Shown here: piece after piece, positions 1,843-45,769 of the stretch | Layout: every line of letters begins with the position of its first letter | How positions within the stretch are numbered: the first letter of the stretch is position 1 | DNA from: Ostreococcus lucimarinus | Taxonomy: Eukaryota | DNA length: 64,000 nt | Assembly (NCBI GenBank): GCA_000092065.1 | Contig: CP000587.1 | Direction: 5' to 3' (one strand) | The notes under the pieces: model-generated | Told to the model about the DNA's origin: nothing | Seen by the model: only the letters and a program-made list of their open reading frames with translations | Databases searched by the model: none | Made by a program: the position numbers and the translations under genes

Positions 1843-3408
1843 TTAGCGAGGCATCCGAAATGCCAAGTATCGCCGAACCCATCGCTCGTAATCCTCGCGT
1901 ATGATCTCCCAAATCGCGAGAGACAGCTGCTCTTTCTTCGTCGGAGGGTGAATCATCGTCTTCACTACTGTGTTTCGCAGGGCGATGTTCGATTTTTTGT
2001 TCACGCCAGCGGAGTGACGCCAAATCGCCGACTTTGTTCGATCTGCGACGTCGATGGAGTCACCAAATCCGAATCGCTCGCCAGCTTCAACGATTCTAAG
2101 CCTGACCGCGGGTGCTTGCAAGACGTGTTCTACGCAACTCGACACGTGGAAGTCTACGGCGGCGATCGGTATGTCGTCGCGGCGCATGAAACCACCCCAC
2201 GTCTTGGCTGCATCCGTTGCTTCTCGCGCGGCGTCGAATGCGAGTTCGAGATACGAAAGCCACGGCGACTTATCGTCAATGATTTCCGGATTGCGCAGCT
2301 CGTCGTACTCGAGCGGTACATCATTACTTTTTGCCGTCTGCTTGAACCGATTGAACCATACGTGCGAAAAACCGTGTAACATGGCGACGTCTCCGGGCAT
2401 TCCGCCAAAGTGCGCACGAATCATCAAAGCCTGAACGACGGTGGCCTCGGCCGCCGGCAACGCGGCCTCGACGTCATTGAGCGCGAGCATGCCACTGGCT
2501 GAATCGCCAGCGACGCCGTACGAAACGCTATCTTTGATGCGGATAGCCGCCATTTCGCCAGCTATACGAGCCACCGCGGCGCGCAACGCGTCCGTCGGCT
2601 CGAATCCTTTGCTCGTCGCGCACATGAGCCACGTCAACAGTACGACATCTGGATGCAGGATAGCATCTTCTAATGAAATGATCACGAGTCTACGGACGCA
2701 TTCGATGAGCGCTTGCGGGTCTAAACACATGTGCATGGCTACGCGCGAAGCAGCAGCAGCGCGACCTCGCCTGATATTCTTCTGCAATGCGGATTTGATC
2801 ACGCTCAACTTGAGCTGTTCGCCATCTGCACTCGCTCGACTCGCGCGAACTTCAGCGTACTCTTTCGCGTCCCGTAACGCTTCGCGCAACGCGTTCTCTT
2901 GATCTGGACCATCGTCGCTCGCGACGTCCGTCATCAACTTTAGCGTCGTCGAACACGTCGTACCGCTCGCCAATTTCTCTTTAACCACGACTTGACTCGC
3001 CCACTTCGCCGAAGATTCCGCCTTAATAGATTTCCCCAACGACAACGACACGTCCCAACGTGAACGCGCCGCGTCGTAGGTCAACAAAAATATGCGCTCG
3101 CGCTCGCGCTCGCGCTGCGCCGCCATCATGCTCGCGAAGGCGTTCGTCGCCGGTTTTGGTTTTGTCGCCGGCTGTTTCTCGGCAACCTCAGCATCGCTGT
3201 CGCCATCCTCTCGACGTTCACGTATAATGCACGTCCCGACGTGAGATTCCAAAAGCATCTTGGCAACGTTCTTTGCGCATAAAGGACACCGTTCGAATCG
3301 CGACGATGAATCCGTGGAAGTTCGCGCCTTCTTCGCGCCGTCCGCCGCGCTCGGCGTCTTAACAGCCGGTGCAAAATACGCGGCGATGCTCCCTCGTTTA
3401 TGCGTCAT
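1843..3408 (-). CDS. UBZ4-type (Rad18-like) zinc-finger protein with an uncharacterised C-terminal domain.
   Basis: The N-terminus carries CPLCAKNVAKMLLESHVGTC (a C-x2-C...H-x3-C UBZ4 pattern). It is followed by a roughly 400-aa region of normal composition with no motif I recognise. Confidence 0.55.
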   Translation of the reverse strand: MTHKRGSIAAYFAPAVKTPSAADGAKKARTSTDSSSRFERCPLCAKNVAKMLLESHVGTCIIRERREDGDSDAEVAEKQPATKPKPATNAFASMMAAQRERERERIFLLTYDAARSRWDVSLSLGKSIKAESSAKWASQVVVKEKLASGTTCSTTLKLMTDVASDDGPDQENALREALRDAKEYAEVRASRASADGEQLKLSVIKSALQKNIRRGRAAAASRVAMHMCLDPQALIECVRRLVIISLEDAILHPDVVLLTWLMCATSKGFEPTDALRAAVARIAGEMAAIRIKDSVSYGVAGDSASGMLALNDVEAALPAAEATVVQALMIRAHFGGMPGDVAMLHGFSHVWFNRFKQTAKSNDVPLEYDELRNPEIIDDKSPWLSYLELAFDAAREATDAAKTWGGFMRRDDIPIAAVDFHVSSCVEHVLQAPAVRLRIVEAGERFGFGDSIDVADRTKSAIWRHSAGVNKKSNIALRNTVVKTMIHPPTKKEQLSLAIWEIIREDYERWVRRYLAFRMPR

Positions 3409-17456: not shown

Positions 17457-17775
17457 GGCCTATCGCGTTCGAGTTGCGTCAGTCGTCGTCCGTTCGCGTT
17501 CGGTCGCGGTCAACGCGCGCGCGACAGCTCGAAAGTCAAAAAATCAAATCGACGCGCGCGCGGCGTGTCGCTTTCACCGTCGCGCGCGGCGCTTTTCGAA
17601 CGCACCTGCATCGCGTCGTTAGCGTTCATCGCGCGCGCGTCCTCCGTCGTCGCACGCGGTGTGTCGTCGTCGCGATCGCGTCGTCGTCGCGTTCTGACGC
17701 TCGGAGTGAGCCGTGAGCGTAAAGTCTTCTTTGAGCGATACTGATTATAAAACTTCTCGAACGAGCGTCGCGCGC

Positions 17776-17849
17776 GCGAAGAATCGGACGAGCGAGGACG
17801 CCGAGCGATATCGCTCAAACGTCTTTTCTCGCACGTCGTCACCGATTCG
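17776..17849 (-). promoter_or_regulatory. Candidate SECIS element (form 2) in the 3' UTR of the glutathione peroxidase gene.
   Basis: Minus-strand RNA: cgaaucgg-UGAC-GACGUGCGAG-AAAA-[GACG uuu gagcgauaucgcuc gg CGUC]-CUCGCUCGUC-C-GA-uuc. It has a UGAC/CGAU quartet with tandem G.A pairs, a 10-bp helix II with one U.U mismatch, an unpaired AAAA 11 nt after UGA, and an apical helix III. Folded by eye only. Confidence 0.45.
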
Positions 17850-17875
17850 CGCGGCACGGCGCCGTCGATTTGATT

Positions 17876-18559
17876 TTAAAGGTATGGATTCCGCGGTTTC
17901 GCCGTCAAAGCGACGCCGTCCAAGGCGCGCTTCAAATCTTCCTCGAATCCTTGCTCCAGAGGATCTCCCGGGCCGTACCTGCGAAGGACTCGGCCATCGC
18001 GACCGACTAAAAACTTGGTGTAATTCCAAGGAATTTCTCCGTCGAACGGCGGTCTCTTTAAAAACTCGTACACCGGCGATTGCTTCGCCGAACTCGTGAC
18101 GTCGTCCACCAACGGCGCCGTCAAAACCGCATCCGGATCATCCTTGAATTCCTCGTACGACGCCGGATCGATTCCTTTGCACCTGACCGGTTTAGCCTTG
18201 ACCGCGATTTTATCCATCACCGGAAACGTATCGACGCCGAATTTCTTATACGCGTACGCGCGTTCCATCTCGCTCGTTCCCGGCGCTTGGCACCCGAACT
18301 GATTCGCGGGAAACGCGATGATTTCAAACCCCCTATCGCGATACGTCTCATACATCCGCCTCAGCGCTGGGTAGTTGCTGTTCACCAGAGGTCACTCGCT
18401 CGCCACGTTGACGACGACGCTCACTTTGCCCCGATACGCCGCCAGCGGCGTCGGTTTCCCGTACTGCATCACCGTGAGATCGTACAACGACTCGGGCGAC
18501 TCCGCCGCGCGCGCCGGCGTCACCGTCACCATCGCCGCGAGCGTCGCGACGCGCGCCAT
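17876..18559 (-). CDS. GPX: Selenocysteine-containing glutathione peroxidase; the in-frame TGA at 18392-18394 encodes Sec.
   Basis: ORFs 18392..18784 and 17876..18385 lie on the same strand and in the same frame, separated only by TGA-CCT-CTG. The joined product is ...LYDLTVMQYGKPTPLAAYRGKVSVVVNVASE-U-PLVNSNYPALRRMYETYRDRGFEIIAFPANQFG...WNYTKFLV.... The TGA falls exactly at the GPx catalytic position (NVASxU; Tyr at U+7 as in human GPX1/4). Start placed at MARVATLAAMV (18559); upstream Met codons are alternatives. Confidence 0.8.
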
Positions 18560-18786
18560 CGCCCGTCGTCGCGTCGTCGTCGCGTCGTCGTCGTAAGCAT
18601 CGTCGACGGTTACCGCGACACCCCTACCGTTCGTCGCGCGCGTCGTCGTCGCCGTCGCGCGCGCTCGCCTCGTCGTCGCGCGCGTCGTCGTCATCGTCCG
18701 CGTCGCGCCCGCGCGCGCGGCCGTCGTCGACATGAATCGCCGCGCCGGCGCACCTCCGCGCGTCACAGAGTGTCGCGTCCGCATCC

Positions 18787-19785
18787 ATGTCGGCGCGCGC
18801 GTTCGCGTTCGCGTCGGCGTCGCGCGCGCAGCCGACGCGCGCGCTCGCGCGCCGTCGCGACGCGCGGAGACGCGCGTCGAACGCCGACGGCGCGTCGTCC
18901 TGGACCGTCGTCGTCGATCGCGCGTCGTCGCGCTTCGGCAGCGACCTGCTCGTCGAGCGCGTGTCGAGCGACTGCCCGAACGCCGCGTTCGCGGGCGCGC
19001 TGGTGCTGACGCGCGCGGACGCGCCCGACGCGGTGCTGAGCGAACGACGAGACGACGGACGCGAGTCGCGGTCGGGACGCGCGGTCGGGCGAGGCGGGGT
19101 GTTCGACGCGTTCGCGACGCTGCCGGCGACGCTCGAGGGCGAGGCGAGACGAGGGAAGAAGACGATCGGAATATTAGGCCTGGGGGCGGGCACGTGCGCG
19201 GAAATCATGGCGGGACATCACGACGACGTGGACATGATCGGGTGGGAGCTGGATCCAGCCATCGTGGAACTGGCGAGACGACACTTCGCGGTGGGGGATT
19301 TGGAACGCGAGGGGAGGTTGCGCGTCGTCACGGGGGACGCGTTCGAGGGGTGCGCGCGGAGCGAGATCGAGTTCGATGGACTCATCGTCGATTGTTTCGA
19401 TGAGAATTCAGTCGTGGTGGCGTGTTTGAAGGATAAAGCGACGTGGGAGGCGTTGGCGGCGCGACTGAAACCGGGCGGTCGCGTCGTGGCCAACGTGAGC
19501 ACGGGACGAGGGAAAGGCGCGAAGCTGGACGACGCCATCGCGTGCGCGCAGGCGCTCGCGGACGCGACGTCGGATGAAGTCACGATTTGGCGCGCGGGGG
19601 CGTGTTCGATATGGAACGAGCTCATTTTGAGCGGGCCCGAGGTGAATTGGCGTCGCGTCGCGGACGAGTACGGCGATTTCGCGAGTTTGACAAAGGATTG
19701 GTTTTACTTTAAAAAGCCAGCGGACGCGGCTTCCGGCGCGCCGTGGCTCGCGAAAACGCTCGGGGTAGACAACGATAGCGCATAG
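18787..19785 (+). CDS. Spermidine/spermine synthase-like class I SAM-dependent methyltransferase-fold protein.
   Basis: GKKTIGILGLGAGTCAEIMA...DMIGWELDPAIVELARRHF...GRLRVVTGDAFEG...FDGLIVDCFD resembles the PABS (spermidine synthase) core. The N-terminus is Ala/Arg-rich and the start is uncertain. Confidence 0.5.
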   Translation: MSARAFAFASASRAQPTRALARRRDARRRASNADGASSWTVVVDRASSRFGSDLLVERVSSDCPNAAFAGALVLTRADAPDAVLSERRDDGRESRSGRAVGRGGVFDAFATLPATLEGEARRGKKTIGILGLGAGTCAEIMAGHHDDVDMIGWELDPAIVELARRHFAVGDLEREGRLRVVTGDAFEGCARSEIEFDGLIVDCFDENSVVVACLKDKATWEALAARLKPGGRVVANVSTGRGKGAKLDDAIACAQALADATSDEVTIWRAGACSIWNELILSGPEVNWRRVADEYGDFASLTKDWFYFKKPADAASGAPWLAKTLGVDNDSA

Positions 19786-39691: not shown

Positions 39692-42600
39692 TCACACGAA
39701 CGCGTTGCTGGCGCTGAGGTGCTGGATCAAACCGAGGGCCAAATCGCGGTCGACGCCGCTTCGCTCGGCGACGGCGCGCTGCTCGGTGAAGGTGAGCGTC
39801 TCGAATTTGGAGAGTAAACCGCCGTCGAGGACGTCGAGGGGGGCGAGTAATTGCACATGCTTGCCTTCGAAGACTTTGGGGGTGCGAAACGTGCGCGGGT
39901 TGCAACCGATCGGTGAGCGCACCGTGGTGTTCAACTCGCGTTGAAGGGCGTGGAGCTTGGCGTACGTCGGCTCGTCGGTGGGCATGAAGATGCCCAAAGC
40001 GCCGTCGAGCGTGCCGAAGAAGACGGCGTGTCGATTGGTGCCTTTGGGGCGTTCTCCCGGCGCGGCTTTCGCGGTCGTACCTTCCACGTTAAAACGCACC
40101 ATGCGAGAGATGGGCGAACCGACGTGGTACGCCGAACGCACGAGGAGTTTCTGTCCTTTCCACGACTCGAGCGATTTTGGATCGTAGCCAAAGATGCGCG
40201 CGTTGCCGCTCATGTCGGACCCGAGCAAACTCAGAGTGGCGCCGTCGATCAAGAACTCTGTGCTCACGACGTCCATGCGATCGAAATCCTTGCTGAGCTG
40301 AATGATCGACTTCTCGAAGCCGTTCGCCTTCCAGCGGAAAAAGTGCAAGCCCTTCTCTAAATCGCCCACCAGGATGAAATTCTTCACGACGTTGATGCTC
40401 ACGGTGTGAATTGGGGTGTCGAAGAAAGCGACACTATTCAATTCGACGCCATCCCACGTGTGCACGGTGAGCTTGGTACCGACCGCAACAATCAGGTGAC
40501 CGTCGAGCGCCGATAACGCGGTGCACGCCATCTTCGCTTCGCGCACGCAGCACACTTGTCCTTTCCATCTGTACCCATCCATGGATTCGGCGTCGCGCTC
40601 CCACACCATTTGAAATAAAATGACGCGACCGCGACACGGCGTGTCTTCTCCTCCAGGCATCGCCGTACCGACGGCAAGAAGTGAAAGGAGTGCCCCAGTG
40701 TTAATGTCTCTCAATTGGACATTTCGAACGCACTGCACGTGCTCGCCCGGTTCGAGCGCGTGTTGCCACGCGCTATCGAGCGATCCAGGAACGAGGAGTC
40801 GCACCGAGTATTGTAACTCCATGTCATCGTTCGCTTTCGCGCGCTCGCGTCGCACTTTTGCCAAGGCGATACCGTGGACATTATCTTGCTCTATTTCCCG
40901 TTCGACCCAAGGCACAGGAGCTGATGTAACCAGTGCGTAGAGCTTGAAATCTGGCAGGTACGTAATCGTGTGCGGCGTACACTTGAGCGCCACCTTGCGC
41001 ACCGGCCACGCAGCTTCGTAGTGCATTTTACTAGGCATCTGACAAATGCGCACGCCACCCAACGCGGTGCCTAGAATGAAACCGTGCGGACAGTTGACGT
41101 TGTGGAATACCGTGAATGCGACGACCTCGCCTTCACCACGCGTCGGGAGAGCTAATACGCGAGACCTGCGAACGATGAGCCACAACGGGTTTGGGCCTGC
41201 GACAAAGATGCCTTGCACGCCTTGTCCTTCGCCGACGTTACCGATGCGCGTCAATCGCGCGCCCGCTAGGGAGTCTCTAAGCTGACCTGCGGCGCCTATG
41301 CCAGCGACATTCAAACCAGAACCTTCAACGTCGACGTTGACGCGAGAAAATCGCAACTCATTCTTTTCGAGCGGTTCGTCTTGTCCTTCGTACGTCGTCC
41401 CGGCGGGAACAATGAAACCCTTATACAAGAGCAACGTGCCATCGCCACGCACTGCGGTGAGCAAAGGGCGCTCGTGCGCATCTTGGAATGAATCGATGCG
41501 AATATCGACAATCTCAGGGACACTGGACTCAGCGTTGACGGGTGTTTGCGGACTCAATACGCGCATGCCCTCGGACAGCCCATCGGCGCACCAGATGCGC
41601 GTGCAGCTGGGCAACGAAAACAATTCCAGACTTCCACCCTCGCGCGTCAGCGCGACGATGGCCTCGCTGTTGTTGCACGCGCCGCTCTTCTTGTTCCCTT
41701 CCAAACCCGTAATGGTGCCATTCGTCGCAGCTCGATGAATCCATCCGCTCTTGCGTTCGCCCCCGCCCGCCGCGTCTGCGGCTTCAACAGAATCATCCAC
41801 CAGAGCGAACGCCGTTACTGAAGATGTTGGGATCGCCCCCGTTTCCATCAACGAAACACTCATCTGTTTTTCGTCTCCGGACAACAATCTTATCGAACCA
41901 TCCGATAGCCGAACGATGATGTAAGGATCTAAAATCTGTGCGGACGCGATCGCGGCTCCCTTCGGTGCGTCCATGTCCTGCAAACCGACGTCTTGTACCT
42001 TCACGCCTCCCTTTAACACGCGGATGCCCGTTCCCGTGACTTGGACCGAGCAGTAATGTCCGAAAATATTCGACGCCGCCAACGTGGCTTGATTCGTGAT
42101 GAACTCGAGCGAGGCGCTCACTTCTTGAAGCTCCTCGCCGGTTTCCATGATCATCGTCGACGACTTCATGCTCAGTAACAAATGATGATGGAAAGGTTCG
42201 CGTTCTTCTTTCGAACCTTCTTTGCGATAGTGCAACGTCCACAAACCTTGTAAATTGGGCAGCGTACCGGATTCGACTTCGGTGACGAGTTCAGGCTGGA
42301 CGCCACGAGTCAAAATTGCCAGCGCACCGTTCTTCCCTTGACCGCACGCGGTGATGAGCTCGGTGCGCTCGTTCTTGTTCGAACCCATGGGCGCGCTCGC
42401 GCCGACGGCGATATCCACCACAGGCGCGACGCCGAGCAAAGAGTCCTTGACCTTCAAATCGTAACCAGCAACCTTCAAGCCTGGGATGATGCCGGCCAAG
42501 CCTTCGCGCTTCTTCTCCGTTTGCACGGCGTCGGTCTGCACAGTCTCCGTTTTCGTCGTGCCGTAGAGCAACGCCTCGAGCTCGTCATCGTCATCTTCGG

Positions 42601-44035
42601 GACTCGGCGTCGACGGCGCTGGTGGCGGCGCCTCGGCGGTTTTGGCGCGTTTGCGATTCGCCGCGCCGCCCGATTTAGAGCGCTTACCCTTCGACTTCTC
42701 CGTCGCCTCATCCTCGCTCTCGTCTTCGGCGTCGGGAAGCATGAGAGGTGCCGTCGGTTCTTCTTTAGGCGTGAACTTCACCAAAAGCGAGTCACCAATG
42801 CGACTTCCTAGGAACAACAAATCTCTCGACAGCAGACACATGCCCGAAGAGAGCACAGCGCCGCCGGCGCGCTGAAGCATCATGCGACGTAAACTACGGC
42901 CATCGGTGTGAAGAGCTAAGAGCAACAACGCACCGGTTTTTGTTGTCACCAAGACGCGATCTTCCGACACAACAGACGCCTGAGCGCCATCTAACGTGAT
43001 CTCTAATCCGCAATCGACGGCGCGCGCCGCGCACGCCGGCGGCGGGTTCGCCATGGCGTTCTCCCCCATTCCCGCCGCGCGCGCGGCGACTTCGGCGTCG
43101 TTCCCTTCTTGCGGCCCACCGTGACCGAAAGTATTCAACCCGAGCACGGACGAGCTCTCTTGGGATTCGTGCAGCAAAAAGTCTTGCGAAAACACCAACG
43201 CGCCGCCGAGCGGCGGCAAGAGCGCCGTCAACTTGTACGAGCTCGACGGCAAGTTCTGCCGACGCCAAATCACCGTCCCCTTTTGCTTGTCAACGTCCAC
43301 GCTCAGCGCCACGATCTCACACGTATCTTTGCTCAGGTTATACCGCCCAGCCCACGTCGGCGTCTTTTCGTACAAAACCGCCAGCGCCGGCTCGCCGTAT
43401 CCGTGCAAAAAACACGCGTCGCGAATCAATCGCACCCCCGGCAGGTGCAGCGGGAACGACTCGCGCACGCTCGCCGCGGGTCCTCGCACGCGTCCCTCGT
43501 CGTCGTTCGCCACCAGCCCCAACCCCCCGTCCACGCTCGGCAGCACTCGCACCTTGCCCGCGACGCCGTCCTCCCGCAGCACCACCGCCGCGCACCGACC
43601 CTCGGGATCGCTCACCACCAGCGGCGCCTCTCTCGACATCCGCAGCGTCGTTCCCAGTGGATTACACCCCAGCGCACTCTCGAACGAGTGCATCGACGAG
43701 CAGCACACGTCCCCGGTCGCCGCGTCGTACTCCACCACGCTCAGCTTTCGCTCGCGAATCGCGATCAACAGCGCGTCTCGCTGATTCCTCGGCGCCCCGA
43801 ACCGTCGTCTCAGGACGCTCATCGACCCTATCGCGCCCTGCGCGTCGAACTCGGCGCACACGTCGAGCGATTCTTCGTCACCGCGCCGATTGACGGCGTA
43901 CACGGTGATGCGATTCGCGCTCGCGACGATCAGATTCGGGTCCCCGCCGTCGCCCACGGGGCGCGTGAAGTACGCCGTCACCGCGTGGTCGACGCCCGTG
44001 GGCGGGTGCACCTCGCGGTGCACCGCGTGCGACAT
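39692..44035 (-). CDS. CPSF1: Cleavage and polyadenylation specificity factor 160-kDa subunit (CPSF1; DDB1/SF3b130 beta-propeller family).
   Basis: MSHAVHREVHPPTGVDHAVTAYFTRP matches the CPSF160 N-terminus (MYAVYKQAHPPTG...). About 1447 aa with three beta-propeller regions and a CPSF_A C-terminal domain. The ORF-track N-terminal Arg-rich extension is read-through. Confidence 0.9.
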   Translation of the reverse strand: MSHAVHREVHPPTGVDHAVTAYFTRPVGDGGDPNLIVASANRITVYAVNRRGDEESLDVCAEFDAQGAIGSMSVLRRRFGAPRNQRDALLIAIRERKLSVVEYDAATGDVCCSSMHSFESALGCNPLGTTLRMSREAPLVVSDPEGRCAAVVLREDGVAGKVRVLPSVDGGLGLVANDDEGRVRGPAASVRESFPLHLPGVRLIRDACFLHGYGEPALAVLYEKTPTWAGRYNLSKDTCEIVALSVDVDKQKGTVIWRRQNLPSSSYKLTALLPPLGGALVFSQDFLLHESQESSSVLGLNTFGHGGPQEGNDAEVAARAAGMGENAMANPPPACAARAVDCGLEITLDGAQASVVSEDRVLVTTKTGALLLLALHTDGRSLRRMMLQRAGGAVLSSGMCLLSRDLLFLGSRIGDSLLVKFTPKEEPTAPLMLPDAEDESEDEATEKSKGKRSKSGGAANRKRAKTAEAPPPAPSTPSPEDDDDELEALLYGTTKTETVQTDAVQTEKKREGLAGIIPGLKVAGYDLKVKDSLLGVAPVVDIAVGASAPMGSNKNERTELITACGQGKNGALAILTRGVQPELVTEVESGTLPNLQGLWTLHYRKEGSKEEREPFHHHLLLSMKSSTMIMETGEELQEVSASLEFITNQATLAASNIFGHYCSVQVTGTGIRVLKGGVKVQDVGLQDMDAPKGAAIASAQILDPYIIVRLSDGSIRLLSGDEKQMSVSLMETGAIPTSSVTAFALVDDSVEAADAAGGGERKSGWIHRAATNGTITGLEGNKKSGACNNSEAIVALTREGGSLELFSLPSCTRIWCADGLSEGMRVLSPQTPVNAESSVPEIVDIRIDSFQDAHERPLLTAVRGDGTLLLYKGFIVPAGTTYEGQDEPLEKNELRFSRVNVDVEGSGLNVAGIGAAGQLRDSLAGARLTRIGNVGEGQGVQGIFVAGPNPLWLIVRRSRVLALPTRGEGEVVAFTVFHNVNCPHGFILGTALGGVRICQMPSKMHYEAAWPVRKVALKCTPHTITYLPDFKLYALVTSAPVPWVEREIEQDNVHGIALAKVRRERAKANDDMELQYSVRLLVPGSLDSAWQHALEPGEHVQCVRNVQLRDINTGALLSLLAVGTAMPGGEDTPCRGRVILFQMVWERDAESMDGYRWKGQVCCVREAKMACTALSALDGHLIVAVGTKLTVHTWDGVELNSVAFFDTPIHTVSINVVKNFILVGDLEKGLHFFRWKANGFEKSIIQLSKDFDRMDVVSTEFLIDGATLSLLGSDMSGNARIFGYDPKSLESWKGQKLLVRSAYHVGSPISRMVRFNVEGTTAKAAPGERPKGTNRHAVFFGTLDGALGIFMPTDEPTYAKLHALQRELNTTVRSPIGCNPRTFRTPKVFEGKHVQLLAPLDVLDGGLLSKFETLTFTEQRAVAERSGVDRDLALGLIQHLSASNAFV

Positions 44036-44350
44036 CGCGGCGCCGCGCGCGTCGAGGGCGGCGCGAAATGCAGGTCGAATGCGATCGAAGGCGCGCGTCG
44101 CTCGACATCGCGACGCCGCCGACGCGCCGGCGCGTCGATGCGGACGGCGACGCGGACGACGACGACGACGACGGCGACGGCGACGCGCGCGCGACGCGGG
44201 ACGCGCGCGACGACGACGACGCGCGCGGACGCGCGCGGTCGACGGACGACGCGCGCGCGCGGGACGTTCGAGGACGACGACGCGGGCGCGCGGACGACGC
44301 GCGCGCGCGGCGACGGGCGCGCGGGAGAAACGCGGGCGCGGGACGACGCC

Positions 44351-45769
44351 ATGGGCGGCGCGCGGCGAGGCGCGGGCGCGGAGGACGGGACGACGGCGGC
44401 GGCGGCGACGGCGAGCGCGGCGCGAGACGACGCGGGTCGGAGGAAGACGAAGGAACGGCGCGTGCTGTTCGGGGTGCCGATGTCGCCGGAGGTGTACGCG
44501 ATCGCGTTGGTGTATTTCGTGCAGGGCGTGATCGGGCTGTCGCGGTTGGCGAAGGATTTTTATCTCAAGGATGAGCTGCGCTTGGGGCCGAGCGAGACGG
44601 CGATGATTTTGTCGATTTCGCAAGCGCCGTGGTTGATCAAGCCGCTGTGGGGGTTTCTGAGCGATTCAGTGCCGCTTTTTGGCTATCGGAGAAAGTCGTA
44701 CTTGATGGCGTGCGGCGCGGTGGGGTGTTTGGGTTGGGCATCCATGGCGACGTGGGTGGACGCGCCGGAGACGGCGCTCGTGGCGTTCACGCTCGGGTCG
44801 CTGAGCATCGCGTTTAGCGATGTTTTGATCGATAGTATCGTCGTCGCAAAGGCGAGAGGTGAAGAACAAGGGGTGTCGGGATCGTTGCAATCGCTTTGCT
44901 GGGGGTTCGTCGCCATCGGGAGCATCGTGAGTTCGTATTTTAGCGGGAGTTTGATTGAATCGTACGGCACGAGATTCGTCTTCGGCGCCACCGCGGTGTT
45001 TCCGCTCATGATCGCCGGAGCGTCGACGTTGGTGCAAGAGAAGCCGATCGTCGAGACCGCGCAGGTGTCGAGCGAGGGCGTGTTGAGTGATTTCAAGGCG
45101 ATGTCGGGGAAATTGTTCCAAGTCGCCAAGCGGCGAGACATTTGGGCGCCGGCGTTCTTCGTGTTCTTGTGGCAAGCGACGCCGAGCGCTGGGACGGCGA
45201 TGTTTTATTTCAACACGAATGAGCTCGGATTTTCGCCAGAGTTCTTAGGCCGCGTGGCCCTCGTGCGCGCGTTTTGCGCGCTCGGCGGCGTGGCGTTGTA
45301 CAACGGTTACCTCAAGCGCGTACCGCTCAAAAAGATGTTTTTGTGGACCTCCATCTTGGGCACCGCGCTCGGCTCCACTCAACTTTTACTCGTGAGTCGC
45401 ATGAATTTAGAGTTAGGGATTAGCGATAAAGTGTTCGCGCTCACCGACACCGCGGTGTTGACGGTTTTGGGCGAAGTGAGCTTCCTGCCGGTGCTCGTCT
45501 TGGCGGCGAAAATTTGCCCGGAGGGCGTAGAGGCGACGTTCTTCGCGGCGCTCATGTCTCTCTTCAACGCCGGCGGCGTGACGAGCGAGTTTCTGGGCGC
45601 TGGGTTGACCAAATCGCTCGGTGTTACCGCGGACAACTTCGACAACCTCTTTTTGCTGTTGTCCATTTGTCTCGTCACCGGTTTACTCCCGCTCGCAGCC
45701 ATCAACCTCATAGACGAAGTCAAGGACGACGACGCGGACGACGTCGAGTCGGCGCAAAAGAACGCGTGA
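44351..45769 (+). CDS. Folate-biopterin transporter (BT1 family, MFS).
   Basis: MSPEVYAIALVYFVQGVIGLSRLA...APWLIKPLWGFLSDSVPLFGYRRKSYL is the BT1 signature, with 12 predicted transmembrane segments. The start could be 44351 or 44480. The ORF-track 5' extension is antisense to CPSF1. Confidence 0.8.
   Translation: MGGARRGAGAEDGTTAAAATASAARDDAGRRKTKERRVLFGVPMSPEVYAIALVYFVQGVIGLSRLAKDFYLKDELRLGPSETAMILSISQAPWLIKPLWGFLSDSVPLFGYRRKSYLMACGAVGCLGWASMATWVDAPETALVAFTLGSLSIAFSDVLIDSIVVAKARGEEQGVSGSLQSLCWGFVAIGSIVSSYFSGSLIESYGTRFVFGATAVFPLMIAGASTLVQEKPIVETAQVSSEGVLSDFKAMSGKLFQVAKRRDIWAPAFFVFLWQATPSAGTAMFYFNTNELGFSPEFLGRVALVRAFCALGGVALYNGYLKRVPLKKMFLWTSILGTALGSTQLLLVSRMNLELGISDKVFALTDTAVLTVLGEVSFLPVLVLAAKICPEGVEATFFAALMSLFNAGGVTSEFLGAGLTKSLGVTADNFDNLFLLLSICLVTGLLPLAAINLIDEVKDDDADDVESAQKNA

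Follow-up and report, generated by a model that had tools for sequence, protein, structure and literature searches.

The closest described system is found in Ostreococcus itself. Twenty-nine selenoproteins, five of them glutathione peroxidases (GPx), were reported for O. lucimarinus by Lobanov, Fomenko, Zhang, Sengupta, Hatfield and Gladyshev in 2007 (Genome Biol 8:R198, PMC2375036), who name as typical of Ostreococcus SECIS elements a long apical mini-stem and a G that precedes the quartet. In O. tauri, a 'Glutathione peroxidase D' (ostta07g00300) has been quantified by proteomics (Cells 2022;11:340); it is tied to the O. tauri orthologue discussed below by the shared name 'GpxD' and not by sequence. 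The locus analysed here lies on the minus strand of a 64-kb window (the whole stretch of 64,000 nucleotides under analysis) and is almost certainly the nuclear GpxD gene of O. lucimarinus CCE9901, one of the five genes for a selenocysteine (Sec)-containing GPx, its UGA codon being recoded by means of a form-2 SECIS. Both the gene and its SECIS have been known as GpxD since 2007, and the present analysis confirms known biology. The entry 'O. lucimarinus GpxD' in additional data file 2 of Lobanov et al. starts with MRTRHSVTRGGAPARRFMSTTAARAG and matches the open reading frame (ORF) translated from the ATG at 18784; it contains ...AAYRGKVSVV(V)NVASEUPLVNSNYPALRRMYET..., and its residue 111 falls at PTPLAAY, as in the ORF from 18784. 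As for the origin of the DNA, five proteins encoded in the window are present in the protein collection, and three of them match O. lucimarinus CCE9901 entries exactly (XP_001418816, XP_001418594 and XP_001418812).

Sequence and ORF table between 17600 and 19000 display a minus-strand ORF (18392..18784) that closes with a TGA (18394..18392), followed by CCT (18391..18389), CTG (18388..18386) and then a GTG-started ORF in the same frame (17876..18385). Such a pair of same-frame ORFs split by TGA-CCT-CTG had been noticed in an earlier examination of the letters alone (the sequence-only reading), and it is plainly there; the TGA is the sole interruption of the frame. When translated through, the frame reads ...KVSVVVNVASE, the TGA, PLVNSNYPALRR...FPANQFGCQAPG...IPWNYTKFLVGRDG...NPYL and a stop, or, in longer stretches, ...YRGKVSVVVNVASE, the TGA, PLVNSNYPALRRMYETYRDRGFEIIAFPANQFGCQAPG...EIPWNYTKFLVGRDGRVLRRYGPGDPLEQG...NPYL and the same stop. 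With Cys in place of the internal stop, the product scores 75.6 bits against the Pfam family PF00255 (GSHPx; cut-off 27, E 2.7e-21), and a structure search returns 41 solved chains at E <= 1e-5, which comprise natural glutathione peroxidases or GPx-like peroxiredoxins together with seven de novo designs based on GPX4. The closest solved relative is poplar GPX5 (PDB 2p5q, E 6.2e-33), and the GPx identity that the sequence-only reading had assigned to the read-through product is borne out, its best solved relatives all being GPx. The features of the locus are collected in Table 1.

Table 1. Features of the GpxD locus, with positions counted along the window.
Feature	Position	Strand	Description and evidence
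GpxD coding sequence, published model	17876..18784	-	ATG 18784 to TAA 17878..17876; 302 residues, Sec at 131
Presequence motif TTRRRAMARVATLAAMVTVTPARA	18503..18574	-	Twin Arg, hydrophobic stretch and AxA just before the mature GPx domain; putative function, inferred only
In-frame UGA read as Sec	18392..18394	-	Peroxidatic residue in NVASE-U-PL; TGA shared with O. tauri, Cymbomonas and 6 further orthologues (metagenomic or assembly); opposite the peroxidatic Cys of 2p5q
Clade-specific insert of about 36 residues (KAKPVRCKGIDPASYEEFKDDPDAVLTAPLVDDVTSS)	18029..18136	-	Replaces the usual VNG turn; conserved Cys; alignment A4
Form-2 SECIS, whole hairpin	17770..17857	-	RNAfold, pattern scan, covariance model, covariation, sub-threshold Rfam SECIS_1
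SECIS helix I, 8 bp	17853..17846 with 17780..17773	-	CGCGCGAA/UUCGCGCG
SECIS core, 5' side	17838..17842	-	G 17842, UGA 17841..17839, C 17838; GUGAC invariant in 8 distinct elements
SECIS helix II	17837..17828 with 17796..17787	-	9/10 pairs, one U.U
Unpaired AAAA atop helix II	17824..17827	-	Every orthologue has an unpaired, A-rich motif here
SECIS helix III and apical hairpin (long mini-stem, hence form-2)	17797..17823	-	MFE and centroid folds
SECIS core, 3' side, CGAU	17783..17786	-	C 17786, GA 17785..17784, U 17783; GA invariant in alignments

In a structure-relative alignment the TGA coincides with the peroxidatic Cys of poplar GPX5, a Tyr follows at +7, and bacterial homologues carry Cys at the same place (alignment A4), so that the codon sits at the Sec/Cys site of the family, where it had been placed from the letters alone. 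For the orthologues, the DNA surrounding homologous proteins was retrieved, and the stretch 5' of every called gene was translated. Every orthologous locus obtained in this way, from O. tauri, Mamiellophyceae-like contigs and Cymbomonas, carries a TGA at the homologous codon; the sense codon that close relatives might have had there, a check named in the sequence-only reading, is found in none of them. The motif NVASE-TGA-PLxNxNYP is conserved in 11 loci (O. tauri, other Mamiellophyceae-like contigs and L012) as well as in Cymbomonas genomic DNA, whose frame reads VVVAVNVASE-TGA-PLQNANYPG. These loci include three from O. tauri (L001-L003), a close relative of the window with a downstream ORF 98% identical (L004), three further contigs that resemble Ostreococcus or Micromonas (L005-L008), L010, which is richer in AT, and L012. 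Conserved protein flanks the codon on both sides, as in SLYDLTVxQYGK...KGKVxVVxNVASE-TGA-PLxNxNYP.

A GPx frame split by a single in-frame stop could also be a pseudogene, or the product of a sequencing error, in which a nonsense codon inactivates the active site; no CDS appears to have been deposited, as this reading would have it. UniProt accessions follow positional order along the window, and those of the two flanking genes are consecutive (A4RZL5 and A4RZL6), which suggests that GpxD is absent from the deposited O. lucimarinus CDS set. However, the same TGA recurs in 8 independent assemblies whose downstream ORF is identical, the codon and the protein around it are shared across genera, and a conserved, covarying SECIS lies 3' of the gene, so that inactivation or error is left with hardly any probability. 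The contigs with the exact downstream ORF were also checked for transcripts: all those that reach past the gene run into neighbouring genes and are therefore genomic rather than transcript-derived.

The UGA might instead be read as a standard amino acid (Trp or Cys), through a variant code or SECIS-independent read-through, and a single database entry, P0043, is translated with W at this codon. Yet among the 16 long ORFs of the window TGA is the stop of 6, one of them a neighbouring gene whose product is exactly equal to XP_001418816; the codon falls on the peroxidatic Sec/Cys residue of GPx, a SECIS is present, and Lobanov et al. (2007) showed selenoproteins of O. tauri by 75Se labelling. This reading is accordingly regarded as extremely improbable.

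The third alternative is the one assumed by metagenome callers, namely that translation terminates at the TGA and that the downstream ORF is made from its own start as a second product. Gene callers do give proteins of 158-169 aa that begin just past the TGA, and most close database homologues of GpxD (P0001-P0003, P0005, P0006 and P0021) are of this kind; in Cymbomonas, the annotated model P0024 has the Sec segment spliced out. The sequence-only reading had anticipated that gene callers would truncate or split the gene, and these six truncated homologues, the W of P0043 and the Cymbomonas model agree with it. As a description of the biology, however, two products would require a nuclear gene of a eukaryote to start at GTG by bacterial rules; orthologues differ in the start that was called (GTG, TTG or, 14 codons in, an ATG), each fragment would lack half of the thioredoxin fold, the second would also lack the peroxidatic residue, and the SECIS would be left without a role. 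The chance that two separate products are made is considered negligible. Taken together, the conservation of the TGA, the conserved protein flanking it and the use of TGA as an ordinary stop exclude for practical purposes a pseudogene, a sequencing error, two genes and a variant code. The locus is a real gene for a Sec-containing glutathione peroxidase with a SECIS in its 3' UTR, and what is directly seen of it comprises its structure, the conserved UGA, the anatomy, conservation and covariation of the SECIS, and the match to the published GpxD.

The hairpin lies where the sequence-only reading had located a form-2 SECIS, 3' of the TAA stop codon (17878..17876), and it is both conserved and covarying across orthologues. 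It spans the nucleotides 19-106 past the TAA, with the UGA of the core 35 nt past it, in a region that would be transcribed as the 3' UTR of GpxD, and it folds with -46.2 kcal/mol (RNAfold, z -2.83). Helix I is separated from the core by an asymmetric internal loop; in the core, the GA of the 3' strand is predicted to form tandem sheared G.A pairs with the UGA of the 5' strand. Eleven nucleotides separate this UGA from the first A of the unpaired AAAA, above which helix III pairs GACG (17823..17820) with CGUC (17800..17797) and carries the apical hairpin GAGCGA-UA-UCGCUC (17816..17803). The apical sequence is wholly different between species, with the stem kept. Both the G-type quartet and the long mini-stem agree with the 2007 description of Ostreococcus elements.

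How unusual such a hairpin is was gauged by scanning both strands of the window (128 kb) with a custom, loose SECIS pattern, with 60 dinucleotide shuffles as control. The loose pattern itself has 2 matches in the window against 1.6 expected from the shuffles, and matches as strong as the GpxD element (8 bp or more in helix I, 9 pairs or more in helix II) are expected 0.05 times per 128 kb; the GpxD match is, in addition, on the correct strand and within 110 nt of the stop codon. The second match, at 42794..42711 on the minus strand, lies inside a 1643-aa ORF and within chance expectation, and was rejected as a SECIS. The same architecture is found 3' of six other distinct orthologue genes: the pattern scan recovers equivalent elements 3' of the O. 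tauri, L004, L009 and L012 genes, and by eye such elements are recognized at L006 and L007 too. A covariance model (R1) trained on seven of these elements (alignment A1) gives 81.5 bits to the GpxD SECIS against 18.9 bits for the best unrelated match in the window, and detects the L008 element, absent from the training set and the only independent test of the model, with 30.6 bits (E 3.5e-7); a leave-out alignment (A2, without the window and L004 elements) was misaligned by MAFFT on its 3' side. In a model-based alignment of 8 distinct elements (A3), which was itself fitted to the model, 82.8% of the cells are paired compared with 20-57% in slid controls, changes occur on both sides of 12 of the 16 pairs, and the observed covariation score is reached in none of 500 shuffles; helix II taken by itself is 88.8% paired, with changes on both sides in 8 of its 10 pairs. 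Neither a relaxed pattern applied to 900 nt nor R1 run with its filters off detected a SECIS 3' of L010, and R1 detected none in the Cymbomonas locus (L011). The L005 contig has only 52 nt of 3' flank.

A search of 17500..18000 (501 nt) against Rfam at E <= 10 returned chance matches and no SECIS match; on a segment of 111 nt, Rfam SECIS_1 (RF00031) is the top match (17774..17852), with a full-length canonical alignment, and scores 21.9 bits against a gathering threshold of 35 (E 0.021). The low score counts against the assignment, but probably reflects a limitation of SECIS_1, which expects an AUGA quartet and a short apex.

Recoding in GpxD is expected, from knowledge of the family, to proceed as in other eukaryotic selenoproteins. 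In the mRNA, the codon of the peroxidatic residue is an in-frame UGA, and the machinery for Sec insertion (SBP2, eEFSec and Sec-tRNA[Ser]Sec) would be drawn in by the hairpin of the 3' UTR: SBP2 would bind the kink-turn core of the SECIS, eEFSec would deliver the Sec-tRNA to the UGA, and the ribosome would insert selenocysteine instead of terminating. Within the 64-kb window no tRNA, and hence no tRNA-Sec, was found; the presence of the machinery is taken from the literature, namely the 29 selenoproteins of this species and the 75Se-labelled proteins of O. tauri. The catalytic chemistry and the reductant may likewise be proposed by analogy with the family. The product would be a GPX4- or plant-type peroxidase whose selenol, assisted by the conserved Gln of GCQAPG and the Trp-Asn of PWNYTKF, would reduce hydroperoxides, the oxidised selenol being then regenerated by a thiol reductant. 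These residues are invariant among the 23 sequences of alignment A4 (Q73, W160 and N161 in its numbering) and complete, with the peroxidatic Sec/Cys, the catalytic tetrad of the family (Gln in GxQxPG, Trp and Asn in WNF/YxKFL). The catalytic Gln is that of GCQAPG, the counterpart of the catalytic Gln81 of human GPX4, and not the Q of FPANQFG, the motif quoted in the sequence-only reading, which on this point has to be corrected. Two further Cys residues mark the GpxD clade, one in the insert of Table 1, around which the alignment to PDB chains is broken in two (query residues 123-158), and one directly beside the catalytic Gln (GCQ); at the position of the canonical resolving Cys in the 2p5q alignment, GpxD has a Tyr.

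Candidate in-frame ATGs for the start of GpxD occur at 18784, 18733, 18694 and 18559. The first lies 3 nt from the ATG (18787) of the divergent PABS gene, which leaves no space for a promoter and argues for a GpxD start further downstream; judged from the sequence, the published start at 18784 is thus questionable and the true one uncertain among the four ATGs. The start at 18559 implied by the sequence-only reading survives as one of these candidates, the published model starting at 18784. In 9 of 9 orthologues, a twin Arg, hydrophobic residues and an AxA motif directly precede the mature domain. In Cymbomonas, L010, L012 and the contigs resembling Micromonas, 29-70 further residues stand before the RR motif, and in most cases they are rich in Ser, Thr and Arg. 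This layout resembles a bipartite presequence, in which a stromal signal would be followed by a Tat signal for the thylakoid lumen. When seven N-termini were searched with the Tat-signal profiles of Pfam and NCBIfam, none matched except for a weak, sub-threshold hit on that of L010 (PF10399, 21.3 bits vs 24). In both O. lucimarinus and O. tauri the RR is immediately followed by a Met, which makes an ordinary ER signal peptide equally possible. From the RR/hydrophobic/AxA pattern, the Cys of the insert, the Cys of GCQ and the loss of the resolving Cys, it may be speculated that the GpxD of Mamiellophyceae and Cymbomonas is a Sec-peroxidase of the thylakoid lumen with an unusual recycling mechanism, a tentative proposal that is considered rather unlikely to be correct. 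As a published prediction places a chloroplast transit peptide on no O. tauri selenoprotein (Cells 2022;11:340), a lumenal GpxD, if true, would be new.

The practical value of the locus lies in annotation. Almost all automated and metagenomic models of GpxD orthologues are truncated or mis-spliced at the UGA, and the covariance model together with the orthologue set can be used to re-annotate GpxD across Mamiellophyceae.

Among known systems, the GpxD of O. tauri is a syntenic orthologue (PABS-like gene, GpxD, thioredoxin-like gene and ThrRS, in this order), with 82% identity in an alignment of the downstream ORF that covers 70% of the query. It shares the TGA and the SECIS architecture of O. 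lucimarinus; the apical part and several helix positions of its SECIS differ, with compensation. In its published model, the Met that immediately follows the RRR motif is the first residue. Poplar GPX5 (2p5q), a Cys-GPx of plants that depends on thioredoxin and belongs to the GPX4-like clade, has NVASxC/U..NSNY, FP.NQFG.Q.PG and WN..KFLV in common with GpxD. By comparison, however, it uses Cys and not Sec, has a Gly after the peroxidatic residue where GpxD has Pro-Leu, and lacks the 36-residue insert; its resolving Cys, that of FVCTRFK, aligns with a Tyr in GpxD. At the level of the RNA, the GpxD element shares with Rfam SECIS_1 and with vertebrate form-2 SECIS, such as those of GPX4 and SelT mRNAs, helix I, the internal loop, the UGA/GA quartet, a helix II of about 10-11 bp, the AAR motif and the additional helix III; it differs from them in having GUGA rather than AUGA, a longer apical mini-stem and a high G+C content.

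The deposited O. lucimarinus coding-sequence set appears to lack GpxD, the selenoprotein glutathione peroxidase gene, despite its publication in 2007 (Lobanov et al.), since UniProt accessions follow positional order along the window and those of the genes on either side of it are consecutive (A4RZL5 and A4RZL6), and since the exact sequence of the 169-aa downstream ORF, the part after the Sec codon, was found in ENA and Logan only. In Cymbomonas, the Sec codon seems to have been spliced out of the gene model P0024 (CYMTET_52316); the genomic frame contains VVVAVNVASE*PLQ, a segment that the annotated protein lacks.

Features of GpxD, its orthologous loci and their surroundings (window coordinates unless a locus is named).
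Feature	Position	Strand	Remarks
Presequence region upstream of Sec codon	18503..18784	-	Compared with L001 (O. tauri), L005-L008 (Ostreococcus-/Micromonas-like), L010, L012
36-residue insert	18029..18136	-	KAKPVRCKGIDPASYEEFKDDPDAVLTAPLVDDVTSS; conserved Cys; in place of the GPx VNG turn
Second match to loose SECIS pattern	42711..42794	-	GUGAC, 11-position helix II, 5-bp helix I
Published GpxD start/neighbour ATG junction	18782..18789		ATG 18784 (-), ATG 18787 (+)
GpxD locus with flanks	17457..18786		Neighbours' accessions consecutive
Low-complexity DNA, GAC/GCG-rich	18560..18760	-	Encodes Thr/Arg/Ala/Asp runs: TTTRATTRRARATATTTRA, DDAYDDD
Sec segment in Cymbomonas tetramitiformis	L011 ~3003..3110		LGRX02034506.1
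Frameshift zone, L008	~2440..2603		C-terminus altered
Frameshift zone, L009	2001..2585		N-terminal half scrambled

The published GpxD ATG is a mere 3 nt away from that of a divergent PABS-domain gene whose product exactly matches XP_001418594. A start at 18784 thus leaves zero intergenic space between the two genes, which argues for a true GpxD start further downstream, at 18733, 18694 or 18559. Three Logan contigs carrying GpxD stop at one shared position, which lies 208 nt 5' of the downstream ORF, and this common end is suspected to be a repeat-induced assembly break. Two long-read ("pilon") assemblies, L008 and L009, show apparent frameshifts in the orthologue that probably reflect faulty assembly and not biology; in L008, the called ORF extends into the SECIS because of its altered C-terminus.

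In all GpxD orthologues, twin Arg residues, a hydrophobic stretch and then AxA lie directly N-terminal to the mature domain, and several display an extra Ser/Thr/Arg-rich presequence of 29-70 residues. This layout looks like a bipartite chloroplast and Tat lumenal signal; alternatively, it may be a signal peptide of the ER type, because O. lucimarinus, O. tauri and L006 have a Met immediately behind the RR.

Beyond GpxD's own element, the second pattern match is probably not a SECIS, as it falls within a 1643-aa ORF (39692..44623, minus strand) and such a match is in line with chance (1.6 expected per window). In the 3' flank of the L010 orthologue (flank at 2481..3380), no SECIS was found by a relaxed pattern, applied to this locus only, or by R1, the covariance model built from seven SECIS elements, run with filters off; nor did R1, likewise unfiltered, find one downstream of 4734 in Cymbomonas L011. 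The in-frame TGA is kept in L010, a more AT-rich orthologue.

The 36-residue insert is common to Mamiellophyceae-like orthologues, occurs in a diverged version in Cymbomonas and is missing from L012 and bacterial GPx. The residue just before the catalytic Gln of GpxD is a conserved Cys (GCQAPG). In comparison with usual GPx, GpxD has this Cys-containing insert instead of the VNG turn, and its Sec is followed by Pro-Leu where usual GPx have Gly.
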